DNA from: Eledone cirrhosa
Taxonomy: Eukaryota
Length of the DNA stretch: 64,000 bases
Direction of reading: 5' to 3'
Assembly: GCA_964016885.1 (NCBI GenBank)
Contig: OZ024760.1
Location: 12,710,001 to 12,774,000, forward strand
In this document: in pieces, positions 183-56,911 of the stretch
Layout: the number at the start of each line of letters is the position of its first letter
How positions within the stretch are numbered: the stretch's first letter is position 1
Translations under genes and position numbers: made by a program
Notes under the pieces: generated by a model
Databases searched by the model: none
What the model saw: only the letters and a program-made list of their open reading frames with translations
What the model was told of the DNA's origin: nothing

Positions 183-213
<31 letters not shown>

Positions 214-216
<3 letters not shown>

Positions 217-630
217 ATCAAAAGATGGTTAAAAGAGTTCATGTATTTTATTATGCGCATTTCAAAAACAAATATCATCATGCAATAACATTTGTGTTTT
301 CGTCAGATAAAATAGGGAGACATGATATGAAGGTTAAAAAACACTTGTGAATAGTGCAGTTTTAAATGAACATATGTTGATTTAAAACTGCACTATCCAC
401 AAGTGTTTTTTAACCTTCATATCATGTCTTCCTATTTTATCTGACGAAAACACAAATGTTATTGCATGATGATATTTGTTTTTGAAATGCGCATAATAAA
501 ATACATGGAACTCTTTTAACCATCTTTTGATCTTATATTATTTATACTCCAGTCCTACAAACTGTAGAGTGCTTCTTATCCGATATCTGCATTGCTTTAT
601 TGTACTACAATAAAACTCACCTCCTACACA
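214..630. mobile_element. Fold-back hammerhead element (Penelope-like inverted pLTR remnant) in (TA)n
   Basis: Near-perfect palindrome 214-534 centred on CATATG 371-376 (about 4 arm differences), plus an unpaired tail 535-630. Flanked by (TA)n. Partial relative at 14127-14260. Confidence 0.8.
433..503 (+). ncRNA. Type I hammerhead ribozyme (mirror copy on - strand at 244-314)
   Basis: tattttat-CTGACGA-stem II aaacacaaat...atttgttttt-GAAA-tgcgca-TA-ataaaata. Stem I pairs 8 bp and stem III is palindromic. Confidence 0.85.
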
Positions 631-805: not shown

Positions 806-1142
806 GTGTGAAGTAATTCCATCGGAAAAGTCCAGGAAAAAAGAGTGCTCTATGTATGCAACAGAGCTTAATTATTATTATTATGTAATAAACAACATAA
901 GGCAATTATTCCATTTACCAGTGGTTTCTTAAAAGCAAAAGGTTTTGCTTTCAATCCTCAGAATGAAAAATCCTGGTTTGTTTATTGAATATGGATTCTA
1001 AAAACCTTTTAGAAAGGTTTTTAGAATCCATATTCAATAAACAAACCAGGATTTTTCATTCTGAGGATTGAAAGCAAAACCTTTTGCTTTTAAGAAACCA
1101 CTGGTAAATGGAATAATTGCCTTATGTTGTTTATTACATAAT

Positions 1143-6299: not shown

Positions 6300-6420
6300 T
6301 TTGACTTCTACAGGACTAGAACTGTTCGATTCGGGAGAAATCATCAGGAAAGCCGACTGTCAATGAGATATGGTGGTATTTATACTCTGCTAAGTATTGA
6401 GTACCTTACTTACCGGCATA
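6300..6420. mobile_element. Collapsed inverted hammerhead element (decayed HHR on -, tail hairpin on +)
   Basis: Minus strand reads CTGATGA...cgaac-agttctagtcctg-TA (GAAA damaged). Plus strand has the tail tactctgctaagtattgagta. Same family as 7896, 43777 and 51320. Confidence 0.55.
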
Positions 6421-6454
6421 AACATATATATATATATATATATATAAAGTAATA

Positions 6455-6624
6455 ATAATAAATGTGAAGACTAAAATCCAAAGAGGGCTCGATAAGAACC
6501 CTAGAGCAAATATTTATTAAAATAACAGATTAAAGTTTAAGCAAAGAATTGCTGCTTTCACCCTTAACAGGATCTTCCCGTTAAGGGTGCTTTGCTTAAA
6601 CTTGAATCTGTTATTTTAATAAAA
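6455..6624. mobile_element. Fold-back element with truncated hammerhead
   Basis: Inverted arms 6513-6624 with inner cacccttaac/gttaagggtg. Minus strand retains gaaga-stem II-GAAA-gca...tgc-TT. Tail hairpin gctc...gagc at 6487-6507. Confidence 0.6.
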
Positions 6625-7870: not shown

Positions 7871-7895
7871 TAATTGACTTTTCACTCCCCCAATA

Positions 7896-11023: not shown

Positions 11024-11088
11024 TATTTTGTCTGATGAAAGCACACCATAATTTAACGTGGTGTCCTTGAAATATGTATAATAAAATA
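11024..11088 (+). ncRNA. Type I hammerhead ribozyme
   Basis: tattttgt-CTGATGA-aagcacacca...tggtgtcctt-GAAA-tatgta-TA-ataaaata. Distal stem tatttataaaac/gttttataaata. Confidence 0.85.
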
Positions 11089-12833: not shown

Positions 12834-13136
12834 CCCTTTACCATTTAAACCAGCCGTATCCGGCCAGAATTTTCTCACCTCTTTCTGTTCAAACTGGTCA
12901 TAAATGGCTGCTCATAATTATGTTAAGGGATTGTTCTCAAAATAAATGTTTCTACTTTTGGCACAAGGCCAGCAATTATCACAATATGTTACTGGTACTT
13001 TATTTTAATTAACTCCGTAAGGATGAAAGGCAAAGTTAACCATGGCGGGATTTGAACTCTGACCGATCTTATGTGAGATAAAATCTTTACATCAAAAATA
13101 CAATTGCATATATAAAGTAATGTAAATGCTAAAGGG
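12834..13136. mobile_element. piggyBac-type MITE with nested SINE-B fragment
   Basis: TTAA|ccctttaccattta ... taaatgctaaaggg|TTAA, i.e. terminal inverted repeats with a TTAA target duplication. Confidence 0.8.
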
Positions 13137-13140
13137 TTAA

Positions 13141-13662
13141 AGTGTTGTGTAGGTATCACAACAAAAAGCACCCAGTCCACTCTGTAAAGTGGTTGTGTAA
13201 GAGTCAGAACAAAAAGCACCCAGTCCACACTGTAAAGTGGTTGTGTAGGAGTCACGACAAAAAGCACCCAGTCCACTCTGTAAAGTGGTTGTGTAGGTGT
13301 CACGACAAAAAGCACCCAGTCCAGACTGTAAAGTGGTTGTGTAGGTGTCACGACAAAAAGCACCCAGTCCAGACTGTAAAGTGGTTGTGTAGGTGTCACG
13401 ACAAGAAGCACCCAGTTCACACTGTAAATGGTTGAGTAGGTGTCACAACAAAAAGCACCCAGTCCACTCTGTAAAGTGGTTGTGTAGGTGTCACGACAAG
13501 AAGCACCCAGTTCACACTGTAAATGGTTGTGTAGGTGTCACAACAAAAAGCACCCAGTCCACTCTGTAAAGTGGTTGTGTAGGAGTCACGACAAAAAGCA
13601 CCCAGTCCACTCTGTAAAGTGGTTGTGTAGGTGTCACGACAAAAAGCACCCAGTCCACACTT
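13141..13662 (+). repeat. 48-bp tandem array (about 11 copies) derived from the SINE-A body
   Basis: Unit aagtggttgtgtaggtgtcacgacaaaaagcacccagtccactctgta matches SINE-A ...gccacggcaaaaaagcacccagcactcactgtaaa. Confidence 0.85.
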
Positions 13663-14045
13663 AAAGGGTGGACTGGGTTCTTTTTTTCTGGCACCAGTAC
13701 AACCACCACCTTAAATAGTGGATTGGGTGCTGTTTGGTGGTGGTGGTGGTGGTGGTGGTGGTATTAGGTGGTGTTCTGGTGGTATTGGTTGTAGTTTGGC
13801 TGGTGATAGTGGTGGTTGTGATGGCATGGTGGTTTTGATGATGTGGCAATGGTGATGGTAGTAGTAGTAGTAGTAGTAGTAGTAATAGTAGTAGTAGTAG
13901 TGGTGGTGGTGGTGGTAGCAGTAATAGCAGGTACGGTGGGAGAAAAGTAAGGAATATTTACAATATCACATCTATTTCAGATGAGAGGAGGGGGCAAATA
14001 CCTGAGATAAAACCTGATTAAAATTCAACACGGTGAGCGAGATGA

Positions 14046-15270
<1,225 letters not shown>

Positions 15271-24472: not shown

Positions 24473-24474
<2 letters not shown>

Positions 24475-24596
24475 CGGAGGAAGTGTGGTAAGGAACCAGG
24501 TGGACCATAATGCACCAAAGTACTCAATACTTAGGGTAGTAGTCCAGAATTAGCCGTCGAAACGCCTTGAGCTCAGCCGTCGGGGTCCTACTCGTT

Positions 24597-24600
<4 letters not shown>
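24473..24600. mobile_element. Collapsed copy of the half-hammerhead fold-back family
   Basis: Tail in minus orientation joined to a plus arm GAAA-cg..ccg-TC-ggggtcc. Same family as 38444, 43491, 50015 and 50544. Confidence 0.75.
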
Positions 24601-24644
<44 letters not shown>

Positions 24645-37755: not shown

Positions 37756-38118
37756 TACATGTGAGAGTGTGTATGTGTATATATACATTAGTCAGCCAGG
37801 CTTTCTAGATTAAGTACAGTAAAGCGCCTTGCTCAAGGGTGACAGTTGACTGATTTCAGTTAAGTACCATCCTACTGTTTCCTAGAGGTGGGCTGGGAGC
37901 TTCAAATGAGATTTACTAAGCCACATAGCAGTTGGTAAGAACTGAAGAAGGAATTACTTGCTCAGATGGAATTCCTCAGGCAAAATATTGCTGGGTGTTT
38001 GAGAAAATATCATTATATGAAAGAAATTTTCATATTTCAAATCTACAAGAGTAATTCTATTATCTCCTTCCATCCATTATTGCTCTCTCTCTCATATATA
38101 TATATATATACTGTATAT

Positions 38119-38290
38119 ATGAATCAAGGGTCAACCAGAGAAGGCTGGTTGTAAAAAGTATAGCATCAATGACTACTCCAGCATCGCTTCAGCCAGTTAG
38201 CTGGTACACTTAACAGAGTAATATATATATATATATATATATAATGTACACTATGTACATATATGTACACCCATACATATATATACATAC

Positions 38291-38324
<34 letters not shown>

Positions 38325-38426
38325 TACTCTGTTAAGTGTTCCAGCTAACTGGCTGAAGCGATGCTGGAGTAGTCATTGATGCTATACTTTTTACAACCAG
38401 CCTTCTCTGGTTGACCCTTGATTCAT
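38119..38426. repeat. About 104-bp inverted repeat enclosing a microsatellite spacer
   Basis: atgaatcaagggtcaacc...aacagagtaat / attactctgtt...ggttgacccttgattcat, near-identical arms. Confidence 0.88.
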
Positions 38427-38443
38427 ATATATATTATATATAT

Positions 38444-38639
38444 AACGAAGGAAATGTGGTAAGGAACCAGGTGGACCATAACGCACCAAAGTACTCAATA
38501 CTTGAGGTAGTAGAGTGGGTAATAGGAACCAGTAAGACCCCGACAGCTGAGCTCAAGCCGTTTCGACGGCTAATTCTGGACGGAATTAGCCGTCGAAACG
38601 GCTTGAGCTCAGCTGTCGGGGTCTTACTGGTTCCTATTA
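38444..38639. mobile_element. Fold-back element carrying a hammerhead 3' half in each arm
   Basis: Palindrome 38520-38639 plus a tail. Arm reads gccgtc-GAAA-cggct..agctg-TC-ggggtc. No CUGANGA. Confidence 0.78.
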
Positions 38640-38656
38640 TATATATATATATATTA

Positions 38657-38993
38657 TCATCATCATCATAATTTCATCATTTCATTTTACGTCCGCTTTT
38701 CCCTGCTTGCAAGGGTGGGACGGGAACTGATTCTGGCTTGATTTCTACAGCTGGATGCCCTTCCTAACACCAACCTCATTTACAGTGAGTGCTGGGTGCT
38801 TTTTTGCCGTGGCACCTCCACGACCACTTTGCAGTGGAATGATATGGACCCCAGTCCCTATCATCTCATTTCTACAGCTGAGTAAACTGGAGCAATGTGA
38901 AATAAAGTGTCAACACATCACCCGGTCTGAGAATTGAACTCACAACCTTTCGATTGCAAGGCCAATGCTCTAACCACTAAGCCATGTGCCTCC
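38657..38993 (-). mobile_element. SINE family A
   Basis: Near full length with a small internal deletion. Confidence 0.87.
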
Positions 38994-39173
38994 ATTGTAT
39001 ATATATATTATATATACATATATATAATTTTGAGTATGTGTTGGTTGTTTACACACCTCAGTATGCAGGTTGGAGCACTCAACGAAGTGGGCAGGCTGGT
39101 TTGTTTACTCCGGTGTAATGCAAAAATAAGAAGTGTAAGCCAACAGGGTAAAGTTAGCTTCGTTTATTCACAT

Positions 39174-39236
39174 TTGCTGTTATATATATTTCAGTGATAA
39201 CCATTATTCAACAGCTATGACCTCATCAGGCGGTAA
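39174..39236 (-). ncRNA. Hammerhead motif with decayed stem I
   Basis: CTGATGA-ggtcatagctgtt gaat aatggttatcact-GAAA-tatata-TA. Stem I ttaccgc/acagcaa is mismatched. Confidence 0.6.
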
Positions 39237-39667
39237 GAATTTAAACAGAAAAAACAAGAAAACATGTTGTAATGGATTTTACTGTGTTAAGCCATTTCTA
39301 CTTTTGGCACAAGGCCAGCAATTACCCAGTGTATTACTGGTACTTTATTTTATCGACCCCATACGGATGAAAGGCAAAGTTAACCTCGGCGGGATTTGAA
39401 CTCAGACCATAAAGGGCCGTAACTCTATGCTGCAAAGCATGGCGTCCGACCCTCTACCGATACTGCCAATCCTAATGATGGTGTATTAGTTCAATGCTTG
39501 ATGTAGTTCATAGAGAATCTTAATGTTTAATTTCTTAGATAAATATAAAGATGTAAACAAATATATCTGTAAATATACAGGCGAAGGCTTCAACGACCTC
39601 ATCTTTGTCCGTCCCCTTGTCGTTTTAATTTGGATTGTCTCAAGAACGTAACCTTATTATGTAAGAA

Positions 39668-39742
39668 GCTGTCTGATGAGATCACGGCACTGGGTACACG
39701 GAATTGTGTGGCCACTGTTGCCATTGAAATATGTATCACAGC
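39668..39742 (+). ncRNA. Type I hammerhead ribozyme
   Basis: gctgt-CTGATGA-gat..ggca..tgcc att-GAAA-tatgta-TC-acagc. AATAAA at 39749. Confidence 0.86.
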
Positions 39743-39862
39743 ATTATCAATAAAGAACTTTTACATCTGAAACTACTTTGCATTTTCTCATTATATATAT
39801 ATATATGCACATATATATATGAATGTCTAAATGAGTGTGAGAGAGAGAGAATGTGTGTGTGT

Positions 39863-39919
<57 letters not shown>

Positions 39920-40006
39920 TAAATATAAAGATATAGGTAGCCTGAACAGAAAAAGCAAAAAACCCCTAAGCAATTATTTCACAAAACACTATATACATAT
40001 ATGTAT

Positions 40007-40052
<46 letters not shown>

Positions 40053-40105
40053 TCATCATCATCATTTTACGTCCGCTTTTCCCTGCTTGCAAGGGTGGGA
40101 CGGGT

Positions 40106-40149
<44 letters not shown>

Positions 40150-40220
40150 CAGGGTGCCCCCAAAAATGTATATACACTTTGATTACTGGTACAGTGTATA
40201 CATTTTAGGGGTACACCCTG
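40150..40220. mobile_element. Tiny Tc1/mariner-type MITE (CAGGGTG termini)
   Basis: TA|cagggtg..aaaatgtata...tatacatttt..caccctg. Second copy at 51553-51651. Confidence 0.7.
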
Positions 40221-40224
40221 CCAG

Positions 40225-40263
<39 letters not shown>

Positions 40264-41169
40264 GCTATTAGTGGTATGTACTGCCAGCAAGTCCAAGTCA
40301 GCAATAAATATATCTTTATATAAAAGATTATATAAATACATATACATATATATATATGTATATACATATATATCTTTTATATAGACCCCAATGAAGTTCC
40401 AATCTTATCACCCCACCACCCCCTCTTCCCTTCTTCAGGAGAAGGAAGGGGGGTGTGAGCAAGGGAGCTGGGGGGAGAGGAGGAGGCTAGTCACCCTGTG
40501 AAGTAGGTGAAGTTTTGGAAAATTACCCAGGACTTAAAAGACTGCTGATTATCACTGCTGATAAACTATATAGAGGATTCCTGTGAACTTGGGTCTTTTT
40601 TTATATATTCCTCCTTCCTTCATACCATTCTTTCTTTCTTACTCTCTCTCTCTCTCTCTCTCTCTCACTCACTGTGTCAAGTATGTGTGTATATACATAT
40701 ATATATATACATGTATATATATATATACATGTGTGTGTATATATATATATACACACACACACACATGAGTGTGTGTGTTGAAAAGTTGACTTCAGATTTT
40801 CCCTATTTCCTTGTTAGTCAGTTCTTTATGCTTATTTTAAAACAATGGCATTCTGAATTACATGTGTGTATTAACTTTTCATGGCCTTCACAGCTTTATC
40901 TTCAAAATCATACACACATACGTGTGTATGTCGGGGTCAGTCGTGTAGCGCCATGACAAAAAGCACCCAGTACTCACTGTAAATGAGGTTGGCGTTAGGA
41001 AGGGCATCCAGCTGTAGAAATCAAGCCAGAATCAGTTTCTGTATGAGCAAGACATGGTCACCTGACCTGACATTGACCACAACAGGACAACTTGTCTAAC
41101 CCATTCTAGTGTGGAAAAATGGACGTAAAACAGTGATGATGATATATATATATATATCATCATCACCGT

Positions 41170-41203
<34 letters not shown>

Positions 41204-42469
41204 GATGTGAAGCCTTAATATACACACTTTGCTAAAGCGTTGAGTGCTGATTTTTAAAATCAAATTATATTGGAAGGTTTTGATTTAAATAGGAACCCTC
41301 TAAAATGTGATTTTGTGTCATAAACCACGGGCGGTTTGTTATTATTTTTTGGATGAGTGGCAGATTGAACGGAGTTAAAAGAGGGGCTATTAAACGTTCC
41401 CATGGGCGAGGTGGAGCTAGAGGTGAGTACGGCCAGAAAAAAAATATTCCAAAAAAGAAAAAAATTGAGAGAGAACGAACCCAGATTAAAAACAAAGAAA
41501 ATATTGCAAAGGGAGGTTACTCTCACTGTAGTCCCTTAACTTTATGGTAGACCAAAAGGGAAAAAAACGTTGACTTGAATAAGAAATATATGGCTGCTAT
41601 GTCTAACAATTCAGACGTACATCCAGATGAGCAAGTGTGTTCAAGAGAACACTATGACTGCATCATATTAGCTTTTAACATCCTGTACCACACGAAACCA
41701 CACTAGTTCAAAACAACACTTTCACTGCATCACATTAAAAATTAAAGTCTTTGCTACAATTTCTGACAAATTGTCAAACTAATATGTCCGCTAGTAAAAA
41801 AAATACTATAGACATTTTAATTAATACGTGCCAACGAGACTACATAGTTGCTTGGCTTGCTAGAAACATCAACCAAATCTCCTTCAAAATGATACAGCAT
41901 TCTCTGTAAAACATACAATGTGAGAAAAGGATGGAATGGTCGTGGTGGGAATGTCCTCGTATCACAGGTCTATGTTCGATCAATAGATCACCGTTTATCC
42001 GGAGATACTGTACACATTTCGTATTGATGTCAGCGATGGAAGCTGGTCGTGGACTTCCTCCGAGTGGCTGGAAATAACAGCCACATCTCCCTCAAATCAC
42101 AATCCAGAGTCTTAAAACGTGATGGCCATATTAGTAAATTAACAGTCACAGATAGACACGAAATGTTTGAAAAAATATGAATATGATGGCCACGCCTGGA
42201 GCGTCTTTTATCATACATGCATCAGCTCCATCAGGGTTGACGTGAATGTAAACACCTTCAGCGGTTAGTATTTTAAGACTTAAGTTTATTTATTAAATAC
42301 CTATTGTATGTATTAACACTTAGTAGACACATGCCAGTACAGAAGTCCTTACATAGCTGCTGGAACTGTTAGAAATAAGAGCGAAATCTCCCTCAATCAA
42401 AACAAAAAAACTAGACGCCTATCTATACTCATTTCTTAACTAATCTAAGTCTGTCTTGGAAGTTTGTCA

Positions 42470-42715
42470 GGCCACTACTTATCCGGTTTCCGTGGCATTA
42501 AGTAACTGAGTGTACAAGACACTTCCCTGGAAAGGACGCCAGTCCATCGTAGGGTTAAACTCCCCAGCTATTGCTGTTGGTGCTCAGCTGAGTATACTGG
42601 AGCAAAATGAAATAAAAAGTGTTTTGCAGAAGAACACAACACGCAACCCAGAGATCGAACCCACGACATTATGATCGTAAGTCCAACACCCTTACCACTA
42701 GGCTACACTCTTCCA
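42470..42715 (-). mobile_element. Older tRNA-derived SINE with a V-domain-like segment
   Basis: Minus strand: tRNA head (TAGCCTAGTGG, GTTCGATC), then gatggactggcgtcctttccaggg...ccacggaaaccggataag. Confidence 0.6.
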
Positions 42716-43457
42716 CTTTTCTCGTAACTGTTCTATATATAAATATATATTTATATATAGAACAAAACTACAACAACGATTATTAACACAAACACCGTAT
42801 GTGAATCTTCACTCATTAATACACACATATAAACACATACATACATATATTTATATATACACTATGTATACTCGTGTATAATTGTATGTCGTATCATACA
42901 CACACATTATATATATATATCTATATATATATATATATATATATCTATATATATATATATACGCTTCCAATACACACACACACTTATATACGTACACGTC
43001 TTAAAAGTTCGTATGAGTAAAACAGTTTACAAGTGTAAAATTCTCTCGACACCATGAATGAATACACAAACCTGTGAAATAATCAGTGAACAAATTATGA
43101 ATGGTGTTGTGAAAAATGTGCTATATTTACACACACACACACACACTCACACACACACATATATATACCTATAGACATAGATACATATACACGAGCACAC
43201 ATACAGCAGCGAACCGATGAGTAAGCCTCTAAGCAGTCGCTTCAACTGCTAGAGAGAGCAGTCAAATATCCCTCAAAACACACCCTACCATTTCATCATC
43301 GTTTAACGTCTCTATCTTCCACGCTAGCATGGGTTAGACGGGAATTGTACCACTTGAGGCGAGATTGATCGGGTGACCGTGACTCGCTCGTATAGGACTA
43401 TCTGGCAGGTTTTTTACGGTTGGATGCCCTTCCTAACACCAACCACATTGAAAGTGT

Positions 43458-43490
<33 letters not shown>

Positions 43491-43492
<2 letters not shown>

Positions 43493-43679
43493 AACGAGTA
43501 GGACCCCGACGGCTGAGCTCAAGCCGTTTCGACGGCTAATTCTGGACAGGATTAGCCGTCGAAACGGCTTGAGCTCAGCCGTCGGGGTCCTACTCGTTCC
43601 TATTACCCACTCTACTATCCTAAGTATTGAGTACTTTGGTGCGTTATGGTCCACCTGGTTCCTTACCACATCTCCTTCG

Positions 43680-43681
<2 letters not shown>
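43491..43681. mobile_element. Fold-back half-hammerhead element
   Basis: Palindrome 43491-43600 plus tail, (TA)n on both sides. Confidence 0.8.
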
Positions 43682-43733
<52 letters not shown>

Positions 43734-43870
43734 GGAGAGGGATAGAGAGAGAGAGAGAGGGGGTTAATATTGAAAAGGCTCCTACAGGACTAGAATAGTT
43801 TCATTCGTATGAAATCATAAGGAATGCACATATGTATGTGTGTATACACACACACATACCTATGTACATG

Positions 43871-43919
<49 letters not shown>

Positions 43920-44026
43920 CAATTTAAAAAGTTATCTGTCTCTAGTGAAAGGATAAGGTATATTAATAAATTATCAACTTAAGCCAAAATCCCGATTGGG
44001 GGGGATATAAGCTATAAATACAGATA

Positions 44027-44075
<49 letters not shown>

Positions 44076-44219
44076 ATATTTGCATAGATAAGCATATTGA
44101 CTGATTAATCGGTTGTGTCTCTCTGGCTGATACCAATTAGTCAGCCACCGATTATCTTTAATGCAATTGTAACTATGTACTATGTATTATGATATGACAA
44201 TGTATATTAAAAGAACGAC

Positions 44220-45108
44220 GGAAGTCTCCACTGCTACAGGCTTGCACCTGCGGGTGGCTAACTCTGCTCTGATAGCAGTGAGTAGGGGTGTGGTCCTGGG
44301 ATAGACCAAGAACTTTGGAAGTCTCCACTGCTACAGGCTTGCACTTGTGGGTGGCCAACTCTGTTTTCATAGCAGTGAGTAGGGATGTGGTCCCGGGTGG
44401 AGCGCAGGCCAAAAACACTGGAAGCCTCCACTGCTTCAAGAAGCTCTTCTACCACAAACCTATCAGAGGGTTTCCAACTCCACTCCTGATACCAGTGAGT
44501 AGGGATGTTTGTTGTCCGGGGGGTAGCCGCAAGGATGTGGCCCTGGGCAGAGGACAGGCCAAGAATGCCACAAGTCTCCACTGCTACAAGAGGCTCTTCT
44601 ACCACAAACCTATCAGAGGTTGGCCAACTACACTCTACTAGCAGTGAGTAGAGATGTCTGTTGTACAGGGCGAAGTGCAGGCCAAGGACACCAAAAGTCT
44701 CCACTGCTACAAGAGGCTCTTCTACCACAAACCTATCAGAGGTTGGCTATTACACTCTACTAGCAGTGAGAAGAGATGTCTGTTGTACAGGGCGAAGTGC
44801 AGGCCAAGGACACCAAAAGGCTCCACTGCTACAAGAGGCTCTTCTACCACAAACCTATCAGAGGTTGACCAATTACACTCTACTAGCAGTGAGTAGAGAT
44901 GTCTGTTGTACAGGGCAAAGTGCAGGCCAAGGACACCAAAAGGCTCCACTGCTACAAGAGGCTCTTCTACCACAAACCTATCAGAGGTTGACCAATTACA
45001 CTCTACTAGCAGTGAGTAGAGATGTCTGTTGTACAGGGCGAAGTGCAGGCCAAGGACACCAAAAGGCTCCACTGTTACAAGAGGCTCTTCTACCACAAAC
45101 CTATCAGA
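44220..45108. repeat. 123-bp GC-richer tandem repeat with diverged leading units
   Basis: ctccactg recurs at 44576, 44699, 44821, 44944 and 45067. Three earlier variant units keep CCACTGCT...CAGTGAGTAG. Confidence 0.9.
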
Positions 45109-46359
45109 GAGCAGCTGATACTTATAAATAACATATATATAATAAATATAATAAATATTTCATAAGTAATCCTAATTATGGATCTCTTGAGAGCAGATCA
45201 TGTTAACATTCGGTAGATTTTTACAGTAGGGACTAACAGATATCTGAGCATGTAAGATATCAACTGTTCTAAAAATGGAAACAAACATTTTTTTTTTCTG
45301 TTTTTACATTATAATTTACACGTTCGCAAATTTGATCACTAAATTCTATTTTTATTATTTTTAATTTTTTTTTGTTTTTGTTTGACTAAGTTAAGATAGC
45401 AGGAATCCTTATTGGTAGAAAATGATTTCAAATACTTTTGGATAATGTAATTAGAATCTTAATAATTTCTAAATTAATTCCTTTCTAAAAGATCAATCAA
45501 TAAAACATACATCCTTGCAGGTAGATATGAGTGTCATACATACATATATACATACATATATGAGTGTCATATATACATACATATATATATATACACACAC
45601 ACATATATGAGTGCCTCACATTCATATATATATATATATATACATATATATAAAAGCGACAAGCCCACACTGTAAACTGGTCATGTAGATGCCATGACAA
45701 AAAGCACCCAGTACTCACTGAAATTGAGGTTGGCACTAGGAAGGGCATCCAGCAGTAGAAACCAAGCCAAAATCAGTTCTGTATGAGCAAGACATGGTCA
45801 CCTCACCTAGCATTGCTCACAACAGGAGAACTCGTCTAACCCATGCTAGCATGGAAAAATGGACGTAAAACGATGATGATGATGATTATACGAATGTGAT
45901 ATTAAATCTAAAAATTAATGAACACGAAATGGTGATCAAACTCTGTCACAATCAACAGAATGTGACTGTAAACATGATGAGAATTTTAATAAAACATGCT
46001 TATTATTGTTTTTAAAATGTTTATTAAGAAAATTTTAATTTTGAATATTTTCCAGATATTTCTTAAATAAAATTAAGAAAAAAAGGCTCCTTCGTTAGTT
46101 GTTTGATAAAACTCATATCAGAAAAGTTAAAAACACACAACACACATCCTTAAATATATGTGTGAAGTTACATAATTATAGATCTGTGTATGTATGGAGG
46201 TTTGTATGTATTTTACGCTATTTATATAATAAATCTATGTATGAAAGTCACGATATAGTTTCTGCACACATTACAAAAATATTTGAAAAATAAAATAGAT
46301 TCTCTATATATAAAGAACTGGAATTTTTAATTAATGATGTTAATATTCTTGAATGGATG

Positions 46360-46790
46360 GCAATGCCAAGGATGGAATGAGAGAAAAACTGTGTATAAGA
46401 GGAACCAAATGTAGTGTCCAAGAAAGAAGACTGCACTGGTAACGACATGTTAGGTTTATGAATGTTGACTGCTGATTAAAGAAGTGCCAGAAAACTACAG
46501 TAGAGGTAAGCCAAAGAAGACTTGGGTATAAGAAGAATCAAGTGTAGTGTTCAAGAAAGAAGATAGTGGTATCAACATGTGATGTTACTGGATGATAAAT
46601 GTTGGGTGGAGAAGTACCAGGAGTTCCTAGTGGAAGGTAGTTGCAGTAAAGGAAGACCAAAGAAGACCTGGGTATAGGAGGAATCAAATGTAGAGTGAAA
46701 GAGGGAAGACTGCACTGGTATGGACATGTGATGCTTATGAATGTTTGTTCCAATGAAGAATTGTCAGGAGTTCCCAGTGGAAATATTTAT
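46360..46790 (+). mobile_element. Decayed, tandemly reiterated RTE C-terminal fragments
   Basis: RLHWYGHVM and GRPKKTW-like segments recur about 3 times. Confidence 0.6.
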
Positions 46791-47314
46791 TATTGGTACA
46801 GATTAAGAATTAAGAATTTTTGCTTTCACCCTAAGCGGGATCATCTGAAACATGAATGTCAGATGATACCACTTATGGGGTGTATATATATATCATCATC
46901 ATCATCGTTTAACGTCCATCTTCCACGCTTGCATGGGTTTGAACGGGAGTTTTCCCACTTGAGGCAAGATTGGTGGGAAAACTCCCGTCCAAACCCATGC
47001 ATATATATATATATAAATATATATATATATGTATATAGAATTACTGGTGTTGGTACCAAAGCAAACACTCTATGCACAGACAGAGTGTATATAATAGAAA
47101 AAAAGAACAAGAAAGTTTCGTTTACATATAAAATATATTTATTGCCTATTGACCTATTATATGCAAGGTTACCTATAGTAGTTATATAGCTCAAGGTTAC
47201 CCATAGTAGTTATATAGCTCAAGGTTACCTATAGTAGTTATATAGCTCAAGGTTACCCATAGTAGTTATATATACTGTTCATAATAGATGAGAAAAAGTA
47301 CTCAATGCATGGGG

Positions 47315-47355
<41 letters not shown>

Positions 47356-47392
47356 CATTAATAAAGATGCTGATGTTACATAAATCATTTAT

Positions 47393-47476
47393 TCATTATA
47401 TTTCAACGGTTCTCTCATGCAATCAAGATGTAATTCATGCATTTGTTGGTGTTATGAGAACGGTATCCTCAGATGA
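47393..47476 (-). ncRNA. Type I hammerhead ribozyme with long stem II
   Basis: tcat-CTGAGGA-taccgttctc...gagaaccgtt-GAAA-ta-TA-atga. Confidence 0.72.
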
Positions 47477-48035
47477 TTTCGATTTTGTGATATGGCGCCG
47501 GCAGGAAAAACATGTCCATCTGCTCCTGCGTCAGCAGACATACACATATATATATTTATATATCATCATCACCATTTTACGTCCATTCTTCTACACTAGC
47601 ATGGGTTAGACGGGTTGTCCTATTGTGGGCAGTGTCCAGTTGGCTGATCTTGTTTTGCTCATACGGGAACTGATTCTGGCTTGATTTCTACAGCTGGATG
47701 CCCTTCCTAACACCAACCTCATTTACAGTGAGTGCTGGGTGCTTTTTTGCCGTGGCACCTACACGACCACTTTACAGTGGGAGGGTGTGGGGGCATATTG
47801 TCTATATGCTTCAGCTTGTACCCATGGGAAGTCGGGTCTTCTGTACTATATATATATATATATCAGTCTGATCAAGCAAATATGAAACTTAAAGTATCAT
47901 TGGAGGACATGAGCCAAACACACACACACACACACACACGCAACAGTTATCTGCGTGTTCCCCTGTCTATGACTCGGAAATTAGAAAATTAACATCCACA
48001 AAACCATATATATACACACATATATATATATATAT

Positions 48036-48375
48036 GGAGGCACATGGCTTAGTGGTTAGAGCATTGACCTTGCAATCGAAAGGTTGTGAGTTCAATTCTA
48101 AGACCGGGTGATGTGTTGTTTCCTTGAGCAAGACACTTTATTTCACATTGCTCCAGTTTACTCAGCTGTAGAAATGAGATGATAGGGACAGAGGTCCCTA
48201 TCATTCCACTGCAAAGTGGTCGTGGAGGTGCCACGGCAAAAAAGCACCCAGCACTCACTGTAAATGAGGTTGGTGTTAGGAAGGGCATCCAGCTGTAGAA
48301 ATCAAGCCAGAATCAGTTCCCGTCCCACCCTTGCAAGCAGGGAAAAAGTGGACGTAAAATGAAAAATGAAATGAT
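48036..48375 (+). mobile_element. SINE family A, full length
   Basis: A box TGGCTTAGTGG, B box GTTCAATTC, RTE-like tail. TA-flanked. Confidence 0.9.
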
Positions 48376-48753
48376 ATATATATATATACACACACACACA
48401 CCAAATGGAATGTATGAACAAGACGTAATCAACTGATCTGTGTTGTCTCAGAACGTGACAACCCATACAATCTTTGCCAACATGGAAGACAAACATACAT
48501 CAGCGATGACGAAGATGATGACATACAAACCAGTGTTTATGTATATATGAATATATATATCTTGGGACGTACGTGTGAATGTCAGTGTGTGTGTATGTGT
48601 GTGTGTGTGTGTGGGAGGGTGTCTAACTTTTTTAATACATCTTGTAGAGTACAAAAGTATGTCTATGTGTGTGTATAGGTAAAGGCCCCTCCGTGGGTCA
48701 CAAATAACCAAGAGATTTGCACCCAGAAAGTTCCCCACCGAGGCACAAGTATG

Positions 48754-48796
<43 letters not shown>

Positions 48797-48989
48797 CATA
48801 CACAGGAAACATGGAATCATCATGGATGGAGAGCCTTTAATCAAAGGGCTGATGGTTCGGGAAAAACCTAGGACCAAACACAAGTATTTATAGACAGATA
48901 GATAGATAGATATGTTTCTTTATTAGCCACAGGGGCACAAAAGAAGGGGATAAATACAAAGGATAGATAGATAGATAGACAGTGTGTAT

Positions 48990-49630
48990 ACATGTGTCCA
49001 TGTATATACGTGTGAATGTGTGTGTATATACGTACGTGATTGCGTGTTTACGTGAGACTGTATGACTGTGTATATACGTGTGACTGTGTATATACGTATG
49101 TGACAGTGTATATATTCGTATATGACTGAGTGCACCCGTGTGACTATATATACGTATTTGACCGTGTATATATATATGTGTGTGACCGTGTATATATATA
49201 TGTGTGACCGTGTATATATACGCGTATGACAGTGTATATATACGTATGTGACTATATATATACGTATATGACTGTATATATACGTATGTCTCTGTATATA
49301 TATATATATATATACGTATGTTACTGTGTATATATATACGTATATGACTATATATACGTATGTGACCGTGTGTATATACGTATATGACTATATATATATA
49401 TACATATATATACGTATATGACTGTATATACATATACGTATGTGAGTGTATATATACGTATATGACTATATATATATATATACGTATGTTACTGTGTATA
49501 TATATATACGTATATGGCTATATATACGGTGTTACTGTGTATATATATACGTATATGACTATATATACGTATGTTACTGTGTATATATATACGTATATGA
49601 CTGTATATATATACATACGTGACGGCGTGT
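48990..49630. repeat. TATACGTATGTGACTG-type minisatellite
   Basis: About 30 degenerate units. Confidence 0.85.
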
Positions 49631-49890
49631 ATATAGGTGTATTACAAGAATAACCATATAAATTACAGATACATCCCGTCCATTCAGCTTCCACACAGTT
49701 TACCGTCAACCCAGTTAAATTTCACAAACAAGGCTATCTTAAATCTACTTATGTCGATAGGGGTAGAATATATACACTCATATATATATATATATATAAA
49801 GTATTTCCGTAGAAAAGGTAAAGGAAAGAAGAGTGCTCTATGTATTGTACAGAGCTATTTAATTATGTAATAAACAACACAATATAATTA

Positions 49891-49963
49891 TTCCATTTAC
49901 CAAAGGTTTCACGAAGACAGGCGACCTCAACAGAGCTGTCCGAAGTCGTTCATCAGAAAGGAA
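49891..49963 (-). ncRNA. Type I hammerhead ribozyme
   Basis: ttccttt-CTGATGA-acga..gacag..ctgtc..tcgt-GAAA-cctttgg-TA-aatggaa. Confidence 0.84.
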
Positions 49964-49977
49964 AATTTAATATAAAT

Positions 49978-50014
<37 letters not shown>

Positions 50015-50016
<2 letters not shown>

Positions 50017-50207
50017 AACGAGTAGGACCCCGACGGCTGAGCTCAAGCCGTTTCGACGGCTAATTCTGGACTCAGAATTAGCCGTCGAAACGGCTTGAGC
50101 TCAGCCGTCGGGGTCCTACTCGTTCCTATTACCCACTCTACTACCCTAAGTATTGAGTACTTTGGTGCGTTATGGTCCACCTGGTTCCTTACCACATTTC
50201 CTTCGTT
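50015..50207. mobile_element. Fold-back half-hammerhead element
   Basis: Palindrome 50015-50126 plus tail. Diverged relatives at 50400-50525 and 52740-52800, collapsed copy at 50544-50693. Confidence 0.8.
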
Positions 50208-50692
50208 ATATATATATATATATATATTCTACCCCTATAGTTTGTATTCCCAGATATGATTATAATTAAGCTCTGAATAGATTCATCTCTGTTAATTCTT
50301 TCAAAGAGCAAAACTTGGTATCGGTTGGCTATCTTTTCATCTATCTATATATCTATATACTTGTGTAAAGATGTATATATTTCTTCAATTAATGTATATA
50401 GCTGTCGAAACGGCCAGAGCTCAGCCGTCGGTGTCCTGAATCTTTTCATATCAGACATTCTACTACCCCAAGCATTGAGTACTCTTGTGGGTTATGGTCT
50501 ACCTGGTTTTTTCCACACCCTTTCTGATATATATATATATATAGGAACGAGTAGGACCCCGACGGCTGAGCTCAAGCCGTTTCGACGGCTAATTCTGGGT
50601 CCTACTCGTTCCTATTACCCACTCTACTACCCTAAGTATTGAGTACTTTGGTGCGTTATGGTCCACCTGGTTCCTTACCACATTTCCCTCGT

Positions 50693-50731
<39 letters not shown>

Positions 50732-51284
50732 AAAAGGTAAACAGAAATAACAACACGGTACAGTATATGGAAAGAATATATTAGGTTAACGCTTGAAATG
50801 TCAGGAAGAGGGTCTTAACGTTTCGGACGCTAGTCCTTCATATATGTAGAGAGAGTTTGACTATAATATCAATATTCCCAACAGTAGTGTTGATTGCTCT
50901 TTTTCGTTTGTTTTCACACATGTACGTAAGTGTATATGCACCTATACATGTGTGGTTGTGTATAAAATGTATAAATACATATACATGCACACACACAAAT
51001 ATACACATAGATTCATATATATACATATACACACACACACACACACACTGCGTATCCACTCCTGTAGAAGACAGTTCTATATTAAAACTGATGTTTACAC
51101 TATACTTATGTATCGAGCACCTAACTGTGGTTACACACACACACACAGACACACACACATATATATATATATAGCAGCATCCCTATTAATCTGGGATTTC
51201 CTATTTAAGAAACCCCTTTATCGCATGGAATGGAGGGGTCTTTCGCTTAGAGAATTACATGGGAGGTAGCTTATACATTCTAGC

Positions 51285-51319
<35 letters not shown>

Positions 51320-51320
<1 letters not shown>

Positions 51321-51497
51321 GTTATTCCGAGTTGAGTCGGAGGTAACCACAGTAAGTAAGGTACTCAATACATTGCAGAGTATAAAAGTTTTAATATAGA
51401 TGAGATTCTACAGGACTAGAACTGTTTCATTCTTTAGAAATCATTGATTTCTAAAGAATGAAACAGTTCTAGTTCTGTAGAATCTCATCTATATTAA

Positions 51498-51502
<5 letters not shown>
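51320..51502. mobile_element. Fold-back element with apex inside the hammerhead core
   Basis: Arms 51389-51502 meet at ATCA-T-TGAT. Each arm reads TGA-stem II-GAAA-cag...ctg-TA-gaa. Tail with tactc...gagta. Confidence 0.78.
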
Positions 51503-51542
<40 letters not shown>

Positions 51543-51693
51543 CACACACACACAGGGTGTTCCCAAAAATGTATACACACTTCAACAGCATTCTAATAAA
51601 TATTGCATGTACAGGTAATCAAAGTGTGTACACATTTTTGGGGACACTATGTGTGTGAGTGTGTATATATTTATATGGTCACACACATATGCT

Positions 51694-51776
<83 letters not shown>

Positions 51777-51923
51777 GCATATGTGTGTGACCAAATAATT
51801 TATCCCCAACCAGTTCAGAATCGGTCATAAAGCAAGTACTGTTTCCGGCATGTGTAGATTTCTGTGTGTGTATATGTTGAAGAAGAGGGATGAATGTTTA
51901 TGTCTAGGCAGGAAGTATTATAC

Positions 51924-51963
<40 letters not shown>

Positions 51964-52295
51964 TTAGTTATATGTAAAACTAATGAGTTGCTTGTCCCCC
52001 AACTCCCAGATTCTCCTCCACCACTGCCATCATGAGAACTATGCTGGAAGGGGTCACAGTTGTGGTAGTTCCCTTCGCTTTTTTCTGAATACATATACAC
52101 ACGCATATCTCAATATATATTATATACACACACACATATATATATACACACACATATATATATATATACACATATAATCGAAATAAAACGATCTCTCTCT
52201 CTCTCTATATATATATATATAGACATATATACAAACACACACACATATAATCGAAATAAAACGATCTCTCTATATATATATAGACATATATACAA

Positions 52296-52330
<35 letters not shown>

Positions 52331-53443
52331 CAAACACATATATATACACACACATCTCTCGATATATATACATATATACATAGATATATATTTGAATGAA
52401 ATGTTACTAGTTAAGACTAGTAAGACCATTATTCGACTTAGTACTCTATATGCTCAAGAAAAGTATAGTAGATACTATGTGTGTGTGTGTGTATATATAG
52501 TATGTGTGTGTGTGTGTATATATATATAGTGTGTGTGATGGCCTCTTTGTCCGTGTGATAACTTTTTTCTTTTTCTAGATGGGTAAGCAACGAGCCAGCC
52601 TCTCCTACATTAGACGTACACCACGGCATGCAACACAGCACCCGTTGCACCCACCCTGTCTATATGTGTATATATATATATATACACACACATACATATA
52701 TATGTATATACATACAGAATAATCAACATACATACACACATAGTTCGGATCTAGTTGTTGAAACGGTAGGAGCTCAGCCGTCAGGGTCCCGAATCCTTCA
52801 TACATACACACACATATACATACTACATACATACAAACACACACACGTATATTTACATATCTACATACATACACACACACACACACACATATATATATAC
52901 CAACACACATATCTACATGTACAGAGTCGCCAGTGATCTGAGTAAGGGGGTATAGGGAGAAACTAGTGATGTTTACATCTCAAGAATTTGATATGTGGAA
53001 AAAGAGAGAGAGAGAGAGGTTGAGGCGAGGAGTGTAATGGAATGAAGGGGGGAAGGAGAGAGGGCTGGGTGACAAATGCCAACGGTTTTCTTTGTATTAA
53101 GACAGAACAAGTACTCGCTAGATATACTTCTGTTGTCCCCTACTTTCTAACGAAGTATAGGCGACCAAAAGACCAAAGAAAATCTACTCTAAAAAATAAG
53201 TTAGTTGTGTTAAACGACCATACAACGATAACATATACTAGAATAAATATATTTGATATCTAATAAATTTAACATAACGAAGAGTTAATTTAATTTAATT
53301 TTTTTTTAAATGTTTCAGTGGACGATTACAGAGTATTAAGAATTAATGGTATTACTGTTAATATATCTCTCCCATATTTTGCATTCTTTTTGTCAAGGTT
53401 TGCTTCCCTTCCGAATCCCTCTTTGGGGTTTTCTATAAACGCA

Positions 53444-53875
53444 ATGTTTGTGGGTCCATCTGGAATGTTTGAGGGATTCTGCTCCCTCATGACCCTCTTA
53501 GGAATAAGTGGGAGAAGAAGAAGAAGCAGAAGATTCCCATTTTTGCTTTAAGGGGTCTTATGGATATATAATCTATTTCAGTCCATCTGGAATGTTGGAG
53601 GGACTCTGCCTCCACGACCCTCTCAGAAATAAGTGAGAGAACAAGAAAAAGAAGACTCCCATCTTTGCCTTTAGGGGTCTCGAGATATGCAACGTTTGAG
53701 GGACTTTGCCCCCCATGACCCTCTAAGGAATGTTGAGAAGAAAAATGAGACTCCGATTTTTCCCTTCAGAGTCTGGGTATATACAATCTTTGAGAGTCTA
53801 TCTGTAATATCTGAGGGACTCTGTCCCTCAAGACCCTCTCGGGGTTGACGACGAAGAAGATTCCCATCTTTGTCT
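53444..53875. repeat. Diverged about 110-125-bp tandem repeat x4
   Basis: Recurring gagggactctg..catgaccctct..ggaat..gagaagaa..gactccc. Confidence 0.75.
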
Positions 53876-54389
53876 TAAATAAATACAAGCGCTGGGCTGT
53901 AAAAAGTAACAAGGCGGTGACTGAAATATTTTCAACTCTTAATTATTAACAGCCAAGTTGTTTATCCTGGCACCGATTATTAAACCGATGAATTGATAAT
54001 TATTTCAAAGCTCGACAGTAAATTACATTACTGTAATAAAACTGTTGTTGAATTTATCGAAGCTGCCCCACTCCTTAAAGAACCTATTTATTCTCTATAT
54101 ATTAATTAATGGTATATACATATATATATATATATATATCAGACCCCTGCCAACCTCTAGAAATACAAATGGGTAGTTCCATGAAAAAGGGTGCCCCAAA
54201 ATTGGGGGATTTTACACACACACACACACGCGTATACATACATACATATACATACATACATACATATACATACATATATATATACATATATATATATATA
54301 TAATCAGACCTGTCAACTCTCCCCGTCCGCCGGGGCGATCACACACCCACTATGGGGTGGGTGAGAGATGTCTTCTCTGATAAAAAGGC

Positions 54390-54424
<35 letters not shown>

Positions 54425-54430
54425 ATATAA

Positions 54431-54600
54431 AATTAGTTACAACGTTGTCACGAACAGGTACTTAAGTTTCGTTGGGTTACACCCCCACACCCCAGCTGAA
54501 TGAGTTAGGGGTGTCTAACCCAGTGAAACTCAAGTACCTGTATATGTCGCTGTTGTAACTAATTACACTTAACTCGTTCTATGAACTGAGTGTTGGGCAT
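54431..54600. mobile_element. Older fold-back element with hammerhead 3' halves
   Basis: Imperfect palindrome 54431-54564. Arms carry GAAA-ct(t/c)aag-TA-cctgt. Tail cacttaactc...gaactgagtg. Confidence 0.6.
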
Positions 54601-55958
54601 TTAAATCTTGGATATTTAAATTTGTACTACAGTATATATATATATATAAACAAGAGTATCAATATTTACGAGTGTATGTCATATATATACTTATTTTAAT
54701 GTGTACTTCTTGTACAGTATCGTATATAGTACATAATACGTATTTATTTTTCATGTTTTTATCAGAGTTTAGTAGAAATATGGTTTGTTTTTCTTTACCA
54801 AAACATACAAGCCATCAAAATCACTATTTATTATTGAACTTATATTAATATTATTATTATTATTATTACTACTGAATAATGACTAAGTTAATTTCGCTAA
54901 TAATTCCACATCGAGTAAATTCCGGCTATGATATACACGTTCCATGTTTTCGATAAAACTCTGAATCCAGTAGTAAACGGAGGGAGAGGCGGGTTGTTGT
55001 CTTTTTCCAATCGGGTAGAAATATCAACTACACACCTCATGTAAATAAATATTTACATAGATGTAAACACAAAAAAACACTATTATATCCTCGCTATATA
55101 ACATTTAATAAAATAATGATTACAGATCGAAGCGAAACCAAAACACCAACAAACGATATATACTAATATTCCATTGAATTATTTCAGGTTGTCACAGTAA
55201 AAAAAGGTTTCGTTTCAGTTTGTTAAAAATAAAAACCCATTACTGAAACCGTTCCGGGTTTTATAAATAACCCAGGACGAAATATAAAACAGAGAACTAT
55301 GCTAAAATTGAAGAATTTCGTTGAAGAAAAAATGGGGAAAAACTCGTTCAGAATGAAATTATTATAAACTTTGATATATTTATCTATAAAGGGGAATATA
55401 GGAGCCTAGAGGAAAGTTAGAAGTTTCTTAATGTTGTATCTTAATTAAATATATCATTCCTTTTTAAAAACATGTATATAGAATCGGTGTATATAGCTTC
55501 ATATGTATACATATTTGTGTGTATATATGTAAAATATACAATACATACATAAATGTATACATATCTGAATATATATATATATAGATAGATAGATAATACA
55601 TGCATAAATGTACACATATCTGTGTATATATACAAATACATAAACATATAGATGTATGTGTGTATATATACATAAATGTAAACATATATGTATATATACA
55701 TACATAAATGCATGCATATCTGTGTGTATATTTAATGAATAAATAAAAAGACCAGGGTTTAATTATATATATATACACACACATAGATCTATACATATCT
55801 GTGTGTATATATATATATATATATGATTGTGGTAAATATTTTTGGCTTTGTGTAGGGGGTATTTTTGATTGCTGTTTTTTTACAAAATTGTGTAAAGTTA
55901 AAATGAATAAAGCTTTAATTAATATACCTGCATTTACGCTAAAAGGGGTGGAACGTAC

Positions 55959-56911
55959 CTGTCAAAATCTGCGTTATCCTTTTCACAACGTGCATCTTTC
56001 CAATTCTGCCAGTCTTTTCCGTGTTTACATGTAGTAAACAGAACTATGTCCCTACCATTATGAATATGATATAAAGAATTCCTCGTCTCAGATCCAATAC
56101 CGATGACATAACGTTTCCCTTTAAAAGATAAAATATATTGTCTTGTTGATGGGATACTGTTGGACGCAACATGGAGGTAACCAGGCTCGCCTCCTTTCAA
56201 GGGGTGATCTTTGGCAAACAATGGGATGGACACATCAAAACCTGTTCGAAAATTAGACCTCGATATACTAGCTTTGGCCAACATCGCTTGTCCAATATCG
56301 AACCCCAAGTCTTCAGCATACTCGGGCCAAGTTCCTGAGTAAAGGTTAAATATGATGTGGTTCTGTCCATTATTCCAAAGATCCAATTTATTCAATTTCC
56401 CTTGTACGTCCTTAACATAATCCCGGCTTAAAACATCGCGGTCCAAGGTGTCCATAGATAACACAAAAATGCAGGCTTTAGCCGGGTCCGTTGTATAGTA
56501 CCTAGATTCCCGTATGACAGTAAGGATTTTACTATAAGTGGTTGATACCCTTTCAAGTTCGGGATAAATGTATACGCGAAATCCGTGCACCTTGCAGCGA
56601 CTAAAATTAAAACATGTTCCCATACGGCAGTCTTTGTTGAAGAAGGCGTTGTTATGTTGCTGTTTACCTTTAATTTGTTGTCTGTTATTGTTGATATTGT
56701 TGTTGTACAGAGACGATTTATGGGTCCGACGTATTTTAGCCGATATGTGTAAATCTTCATCAAATTTATCGTCATCCTCGTCCATGAAAGAACGGCTCTT
56801 AGACTTTTGTAACAGGGAAATATCGCCATGGTGATCCCTAATAAAACCAAGTATAAGAATTAATGCAATTCCAAGCGTGATCACTATTAAGTAGCGCTTT
56901 TTGGCCTGCAT
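55959..56911 (-). CDS. EXT1: Exostosin-1 (EXT1/tout-velu) heparan sulfate co-polymerase, first coding exon
   Basis: ORF starts MQAKKRY followed by a signal-anchor TM helix, and contains CRMGTCFNFSRC, DTLDRD, WNNGQNHIIFNLYSGTWP, FKGKRY, GIGSETRNSLYHIHNG and TTCKHGK motifs typical of EXT1. It ends ...DFDR at a GT donor (AG|GTACGT, GT at 55958-55957), 953 nt = phase 2. The last codons of the ORF track are intronic read-through. Confidence 0.96.

Follow-up and report, generated by a model that had tools for sequence, protein, structure and literature searches.

Head-to-head, one-tailed insertions associated with hammerhead motifs in Eledone cirrhosa resemble insertions of Penelope-like elements

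A 64-kb stretch of the Eledone cirrhosa genome (assembly GCA_964016885.1, contig OZ024760.1, positions 12,710,001 to 12,774,000; hereafter the window) carries families of short repeats, several of hammerhead ribozyme type, in which an inverted arm and a sense arm are joined head to head. These structures are real, and their architecture is already known for Penelope-like elements (PLEs). An earlier note, made from the sequence alone, had proposed that each palindrome formed when the nascent cDNA folded back on the ribozyme's own stem and primed its second strand. In 6 of 13 insertions, however, the inverted arm contains template sequence that the tail-bearing arm lacks, and fold-back fails for these unless a later deletion is invoked. 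The reading we prefer, to which we give about an even chance of being correct, is that two cDNAs were primed from the two target strands (dual or twin priming), each at its own fixed RNA site, and were then linked by end-joining.

The window is AT-rich animal DNA (GC 35.5%) laden with microsatellites. Palindromes were located by scripted self-comparison of the window, and the insertions (Table 1) were catalogued by eye. Counts refer to the 13 two-armed insertions in the window with an assignable tail side; the structures at 7892-7983, 10377-10543, 38114-38431 and 13594-13734 have no assignable tail and stand outside the count. Read evidence came from two public raw runs, X23 (18,923 reads) and X24 (19,104 reads), in which substitution counts are unphased. 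The six palindromes listed in the earlier note are all present where it placed them. Four are near-perfect: 38522-38637 (55-bp arms, no mismatch), 43491-43600 (54-bp arms, 1 mismatch), 50015-50126 (54-bp arms, no mismatch) and 51388-51500 (56-bp arms, 1 mismatch, 1-nt loop). Arms of 54-56 bp are far beyond chance. The other two are diverged or gapped (54431-54564, self-identity 74%; 6513-6623, one arm with a 12-nt gap).

The insertions read, in order, (TA)n, inverted arm, junction, sense arm, tail and AT-rich flank. The inverted arm begins at a fixed internal base, which in six hammerhead-type families lies 65-92 nt upstream of the tail end; in a family in which no ribozyme was seen (46893) the tail measures 38 nt. 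Both outer ends, the internal end and the tail end, are identical in all five young copies of family 1. The tail is present on one arm only, and the targets are (TA)n or AT-rich DNA. In the public reads, the arm-to-tail join was found 4,088 times in X23 and 4,354 times in X24, and (TA)n adjoins the tail end in both of the best-supported classes of left loose ends (1198 and 795 reads in X23; 1053 and 863 in X24). A joint at 24542-24582/3 in runs X1, X23 and X24 is an inverted junction with an arm of ~20 nt that ends at the cleavage site. Thus, the two-armed layout is not peculiar to this assembly, since inverted junctions also occur in public data.

Miniature inverted-repeat transposable elements with terminal inverted repeats (TIR MITEs) are short, non-coding, hairpin-forming and TA-associated. 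The insertions described here have these properties in common with them and differ in their outer ends, one-sided tail and single arms. The outer ends do not match each other in inverted orientation: the inverted repeat lies subterminally, with a 76-nt tail beyond it on one side, and single-armed, 5'-truncated copies occur (50399, 52740). A TIR MITE was therefore rejected, in agreement with the earlier note. A tandem retrozyme of the kind without long terminal repeats was also rejected; copies are single or head to head, and a (TA)n tract divides the neighboring copies at 50399 and 50541, which are separate insertions. A tail motif resembling AGTATTGAGTAC is common to different families (6390-6410, 43620-43640, 51356-51375, 52436-52455 and 47293-47312) and is a candidate recognition site for the mobilizing enzyme. 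The families had been called unrelated, which does not hold for family 1 and the 51389 family (family 2), whose tails have a motif in common.

Because fold-back can recopy only the tail-primed cDNA that already exists, it predicts that the inverted arm holds nothing beyond the tail arm and that the loop follows the template sense. In family 1 (copies 38444, 43488, 50012, 50541 and 24473, in this order), the inverted arms end at -12, -17, -18, -15 and -18 relative to the G of GAAA, and the tail arms start at -17, -10, -14, +24 and +51. The inverted arm reaches further upstream in four of the five, by 7, 4, 39 and 69 nt (43488, 50012, 50541 and 24473, respectively), and these four inverted arms contain the complement of the loop region. 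Note that the 7-nt excess of 43488 falls to ~2 nt if one junction base is taken as a substitution. The inverted arm likewise extends beyond the tail arm at 14128-14270 and 6306-6425, completing the six insertions with template sequence in the inverted arm only. The tail arm is longer in 5 of the 13, which fits either model, and the arms are equal or their order is unclear in 2. The arms overlap at the junction by 0-4 nt and were truncated independently.

The turning points do not follow the ribozyme closely. The six apices named in the earlier note do lie in the core or in stem/loop II, and those of the three family-1 copies among them differ in sequence, as it had stated. That list was selected, however. 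The apices of 212-537 and 885-1137 lie ~67 and ~49 nt upstream of CUGANGA, with a complete hammerhead in both arms (in 885-1137 with no mismatch over 125 bp), and the inverted arm of 6306-6425 extends ~31 nt past the core. Nor is CUGANGA generally deleted, as had been supposed: besides both arms of 212-537 and 885-1137, the core is kept in 14128-14270, in 6306-6425 and in one arm of 7892-7983. The natural helix II hairpins of the 212 and 885 families (~8-12 bp in cDNA folds) were copied through without turning. At the 51389 apex, with its 1-nt loop, no stem is available for priming, and the last 18 nt copied in family 1 form no predicted DNA hairpin (0.0 kcal/mol). The two-armed layout was also found where no ribozyme was seen (46893-47000), as were palindromes in which no core was seen (10377-10543 and 38114-38431).

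The arms nevertheless stop at defined points. The five family-1 inverted arms end within 7 nt of one another, 12-18 nt upstream of GAAA; five uniformly distributed ends would fall within 9 nt with a probability of 0.013 (range of 40 nt) to 0.0001 (range of 140 nt), provided that the copies are independent. The preference of family 1 for a stop in the stem/loop II region is therefore real. A common end point is also found in 212 and 14128. Three ends fall at the predicted cleavage site: those of the 50541 tail arm, of the outer 6513 arm and of the joint seen in X1, X23 and X24. Most inverted arms in the earlier note's list measure 55-61 nt, and the hammerhead covers ~20-80 nt from the internal start. 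Apex position and arm length are therefore confounded, because arms of this length end where the hammerhead sits.

Whether these repeats encode ribozymes differs between families. A type I hammerhead descriptor made for this analysis (CUGANGA, helix II, GAAA, helix III, UH, helix I) found 9 complete motifs in the window, compared to a mean of 0.1 in 30 shuffles. Four of the 9 are the arms of palindromes 212-537 and 885-1137, and by sequence the 212 and 885 families are predicted type I hammerheads. The other five motifs are at 9070-9100, 11032-11080, 39673-39737, 49956-49898 (minus strand) and 23004-22960 (minus strand); the motifs at 11032, 23004 and 441 form a related set in which helix II is long throughout but differs in sequence. 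Rfam returned no match in the window at the gathering threshold; three small scans by E-value gave no hammerhead family, and the best 150 of 635 matches in a whole-window E-value scan were microsatellite and miRNA noise. Family 1, 6513, 54431 and 51389 yielded no match to the descriptor. Family 1 has GAAA-CGGC/GCCG-UC with a palindromic loop, and CUGANGA is present in none of its seven window copies, nor in either of the two copies of the 6513 family. The ribozyme identity of these two families consequently rests on the 3' half of the core. The 54431 copy has CTGAATGA in place of the core, and family 2 has a core at 6347-6341 but pairs it with GAAC. The helix III loops are palindromic and family-specific (TGAGCTCA, TGCGCA and CTTAAG).

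We then compared the two arms of single insertions. Three substitutions common to both arms of the palindrome at 38520 correspond to positions 24578, 24588 and 24593 of the reference stretch. The earlier note had recognized them in both arms but took them to be private to this copy. They occur in 1580 of 10778, 3211 of 8900 and 1715 of 8433 X23 reads (14.7, 36.1 and 20.3%) and in 15.6, 39.4 and 23.2% of X24 reads; two tail changes of the same copy are present in 12-20% of reads. The changes are thus subfamily markers. Both arms of an insertion usually match one subfamily and therefore had a common type of template, which is predicted alike by fold-back, by twin priming on one RNA and by priming on two RNAs of like type. 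The two arms of 54431 are mismatched at 7 of 10 positions within a single block, compared to 4 of 40 in the remainder (permutation p 0.007), which suggests two templates, although this is one case that was selected after the data had been viewed.

In the public data, approximately 5,950 molecules per raw run terminate at AATT at 24548, adjoining the apex, likely the restriction cut of a restriction-site-associated DNA (RAD) library, and the apices of the young subfamily are lost from the reads for this reason. No apex joint was present among the best 15 of 50 joints, which is uninformative; hairpin fragments also amplify poorly. Pattern scans gave no match in viral contigs and none in metagenome contigs; two matches in genome contigs (L001 and L002) were rejected as chance, being 20 nt long with unrelated flanks.

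Taken together, the families behave like insertions of the pseudo-long terminal repeats (pLTRs) of PLEs and were likely mobilized by a Penelope-like reverse transcriptase-endonuclease. The two fixed ends, the independent truncation of the arms and the (TA)n target are observed directly; the enzyme, the priming and the joining we infer, by analogy with in vitro results on an anole PLE and with twin and dual priming by L1. The enzyme would nick both strands of a (TA)n target and start two cDNAs, one where the tail ends and one at the internal site, on one RNA or on two RNAs that usually belong to the same subfamily. The cDNAs would stop at family-specific points: in stem/loop II (family 1), in the core (51389) or ~50-70 nt upstream of the core (two other families), with an arm sometimes ending at the predicted cleavage site. 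Their 3' ends would then be joined head to head by microhomology or blunt end-joining (0-4 nt overlap) and filled in. Ribozyme structure may sharpen the stop but would not be the primer. Apices would often fall in the hammerhead mainly because short cDNAs end ~20-80 nt from the internal start, the stretch that the hammerhead occupies. The earlier note's proposal of independent origins is retained to the extent that the copies appear to have been produced by retrotransposition, at the time of insertion or shortly after it; self-priming on the ribozyme stem as the general cause is not.

Several points weigh against dual priming. The arms end within 0-3 nt of each other in 212, 885 and 51389, where independent truncation needs a sharp stop. 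The insertions with the longer tail arm fit fold-back as well, and the losses from one arm could be later deletions at the center of a perfect palindrome. The tails of 65-92 nt exceed the 30-40 bp published for PLEs. No PLE protein gene was noticed in the window, and the reverse transcriptase fragment at 3631-4542 is not demonstrably of PLE type. The catalogue, assembled by eye, is also small, and a single family dominates it. The asymmetric copies are no proof of dual priming, because apices with 0-3-nt loops keep a snap-back origin alive and center deletions have been reported elsewhere.

Such a snap-back of the cDNA tip, unlikely though it is in our estimate, is the alternative that survives best. 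Here a single cDNA would extend as far as a stop or the 5' end of the RNA, turn on 1-4 nt of microhomology at its tip rather than on a ribozyme stem, and be copied to the internal nick, and the resulting palindrome would later be trimmed asymmetrically at its center. The very short loops (212, 0 nt; 885, 3 nt; 51389, 1 nt) and the self-complementary ATAT at the 212 apex are as expected, as are the identical arms of young copies and the 212 end point of 14128. Asymmetric deletions at palindrome centers are described for transgene concatemers in the part of the source covered (PMC8701086). However, a secondary event is needed in the six asymmetric insertions, four of which lose at least 39 nt of one arm with the other arm whole; the block difference of 54431 does not fit, and the 51389 tip has no pairing.

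We regard as somewhat less probable still that family 1 descends from a palindromic or pre-truncated master. It would have one or a few source loci, palindromic or ending ~18 nt upstream of GAAA; daughter copies would take over the apex region and vary it by small deletions, and the mobility would be that of a retrotransposon rather than of a TIR MITE. Such a source is consistent with the constancy of the outer ends and the tight clustering of the apices in all five copies, and with the missing CUGANGA in all seven family-1 copies of the window. Against it, two young subfamilies and the diverged single-armed copy at 52740 have the same stop, and reads of a diverged subfamily continue upstream (576 in X23 and 704 in X24; weak evidence, as the sequence is only partly shared, with agreement of 0.67 and 0.56). 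Moreover, the other families are left unexplained.

Fold-back on the ribozyme stem or core, with self-priming of the second strand and deletion of CUGANGA, is improbable as a general cause. The six named apices lie where it predicts, and the extent and loop sense of 38444 are compatible with it. The best candidate for a true stem II turn is 6513, whose central hairpin (14 bp, -27.1 kcal/mol, z -6.0) begins at the same base as that of 46790 and in which one extra base fits a 1-nt snap-back; an extra 12-nt deletion is required. The polarity test fails in four of five family-1 copies, however, no hairpin is predicted in the last 18 nt that they copied, complete cores stand in both arms of 212 and 885, and the layout recurs where no ribozyme was seen (46893; 10377 and 38114). 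Note that 46790-46881 is itself a single-armed relative of 6513, with its 5' end at the base of a ~20-bp hairpin just upstream of GAAA (z -5.1).

A familiar class of artefact is the hairpin chimera, and the lack of an intact-apex read among the best 15 of 50 joints would fit assembly or library fold-back, but this origin is very improbable: the palindromes are confined to repeat elements, have a common internal start base and non-palindromic flanks, include some diverged arms, and have counterparts in the inverted junctions of independent public runs.

Returning to dual priming, we also considered, as a long shot, that the hammerhead might act as a signal for RNA dimerization and packaging. 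Through its palindromic helix III loop, each RNA would pair with a second one, and the resulting ribozyme dimer, with two-fold symmetry, would supply a dimeric PLE enzyme; both strands would be primed at once, and both reverse transcriptases would stall near the locked core. If true, this would explain the head-to-head palindromes, the occasional two-template arms (54431) and the inverted pLTRs of PLEs, and PLE hammerheads would gain a function independent of cleavage.

Table 1. Insertions and related copies catalogued in the window
Feature	Position	Strand	Description
Family 1, two-armed	38444..38639	-	tail 38444-38521; palindrome 38522-38637; tail arm 5 nt further upstream than inverted arm
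Family 1, two-armed	43488..43681	+	inverted arm 60 nt, up to 7 nt further upstream than tail arm
Family 1, two-armed	50012..50207	+	inverted arm 61 nt, 4 nt further upstream; junction blunt; tail 76-77 nt
Family 1, insertion	50541..50693	+	inverted arm 58 nt; tail arm begins 1 nt past predicted GUC cleavage site; 2-nt microhomology; absent from earlier note
Family 1, insertion	24473..24601	-	full 61-nt inverted arm and partial tail, no overlap; 2-nt microhomology; absent from earlier note
Family 1 relative, diverged, single-armed	50399..50527	+	5' end ~8 nt upstream of GAAA
Family 1 relative, diverged, single-armed	52741..52800	+	5' end 18-19 nt upstream of GAAA, the register of the young copies' stop
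Family 2, two-armed	51321..51502	-	56-bp arms; 1-nt loop within CUGAUGA; 67-nt tail 51321-51387
Family 2, insertion	6306..6425	+	inverted arm with CUGAUGA (6347-6341, minus), ~31 nt beyond core; joined to non-overlapping partial tail
Diverged, two-armed	54431..54633	+	core-like CTGAATGA at 54496-54503; 69-nt tail; arms differ in 10-nt block
6513 family, two-armed	6448..6624	-	35-nt outer inverted arm ending at predicted cleavage site; 14-bp central hairpin; 65-nt tail; no CUGANGA
212 family	212..629	+	arms ~160 bp; apex 373/374, zero spacer; predicted type I hammerheads 441-495 (+), 306-252 (-); 92-nt tail
212 family	14128..14270	-	inverted arm ends at template base of 212 apex; joined to last 31 nt of tail
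885 family	815..1140	-	125-bp perfect arms; 3-nt loop; predicted hammerheads 1061-1106 (+), 961-916 (-); tail ~70 nt
Repeat family, no hammerhead seen	46893..47000	-	two-armed layout; 28-bp arms; 38-nt tail

Further structures were noted in the window. An inverted duplication at 38114-38431 (107 bp, arms 99% identical, ~104-nt TA/TACA spacer) abuts the tail end of the 38444 insertion; no further copy was found in the window, and it is possibly an inverted duplication of the target flank or another two-armed insertion. The palindrome at 10377-10543 has 81-bp arms and lies between two (TA)n tracts, with no tail or hammerhead core seen. An old family-2 palindrome at 7892-7983 has arms that are ~70% alike, one with a CTGAAGA core and the other stopping within the core, and two single-armed family-2 copies (28696 and 51060) have 5' ends 2-5 nt from the predicted cleavage site. 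A 48-bp minisatellite array (13133-13734) terminates in an inverted, diverged copy of ~1.5 units. A short element with 26-bp terminal inverted repeats (40153-40220 and 51557-51647) is likely an ordinary DNA-transposon MITE, unlike the families studied here. As to coding sequence, a long open reading frame (ORF) on the minus strand at 55937-56911 has an Exostosin GT47 domain (E 9e-30) and is probably the first exon of an EXT1-type gene; the repeats are located 3' of this ORF and are possibly intronic. The 304-residue reverse transcriptase fragment at 3631-4542 on the plus strand (RVT_1, DUF6451) has no link to the palindrome families.

Comparison with known systems, based on the parts of the cited sources covered here, places these insertions closest to PLEs. 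PLE insertions have an adjacent inverted, 5'-truncated copy, a one-ended tail of 30-40 bp and (TA)n targets, and the way in which their inverted copies arise has been called undefined (Craig et al. 2021, PMC8557442). The present insertions resemble those of Penelope/Poseidon, Neptune and Naiad in their adjoining inverted truncated copy (13 insertions), one-sided tail and (TA)n targets without a readable target-site duplication. In contrast to these elements, they measure 110-420 nt, are non-coding and often near-perfectly palindromic, have tails of 65-92 nt and are linked to no reverse transcriptase or GIY-YIG gene. PLE membership is incomplete for the last reason and because the tails are about twice the published length. 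PLE pLTRs carry type I hammerheads with a long helix II and a small or palindromic helix III, and opposite-strand pairs lie 100-700 bp apart (Cervera and de la Pena 2014, PMC4209133). The form of the type I motif and the inverted pairs are alike, whereas most copies here are cut inside the ribozyme; the junctions of inverted pairs are neither mapped nor explained in the covered parts of that paper.

A junction-level test of how PLE inversions form was not found in the literature covered, which included few subscription papers and no supplements. Five near-identical young copies, very short and two-armed, stand within 64 kb, and junction polarity is countable because the genome carries many such copies. 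Asking whether the inverted arm exceeds the tail arm separates dual priming from fold-back and could be scaled to thousands of loci in an assembly. The lasting value of these insertions is a countable test of an open step in PLE transposition.

Two described systems provide parts of the proposed route, again as far as the sources were covered. In vitro, the PLE protein of Anolis (Poseidon PAc; Frangieh et al. 2024, PMC11167929) nicks both strands and extends them, uses uncleaved RNA with two internal RNA starts that bracket the tail, and is a predicted dimer. Two fixed reverse transcription starts bracketing the tail, AT-rich nicking, extension of both strands and uncleaved RNA are points of likeness. 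Its starts, however, are a few to tens of nt apart, and head-to-head joining and stop sites are not addressed there. For L1, twin and dual priming are described (PMC2837659, PMC11702581), and, as proposed for the present insertions, two cDNAs arise from opposite target strands and meet with little or no microhomology at the join. In L1 the second priming site is variable and the arms barely overlap, whereas here the site is fixed and the arms often overlap almost fully, which gives rise to palindromes.

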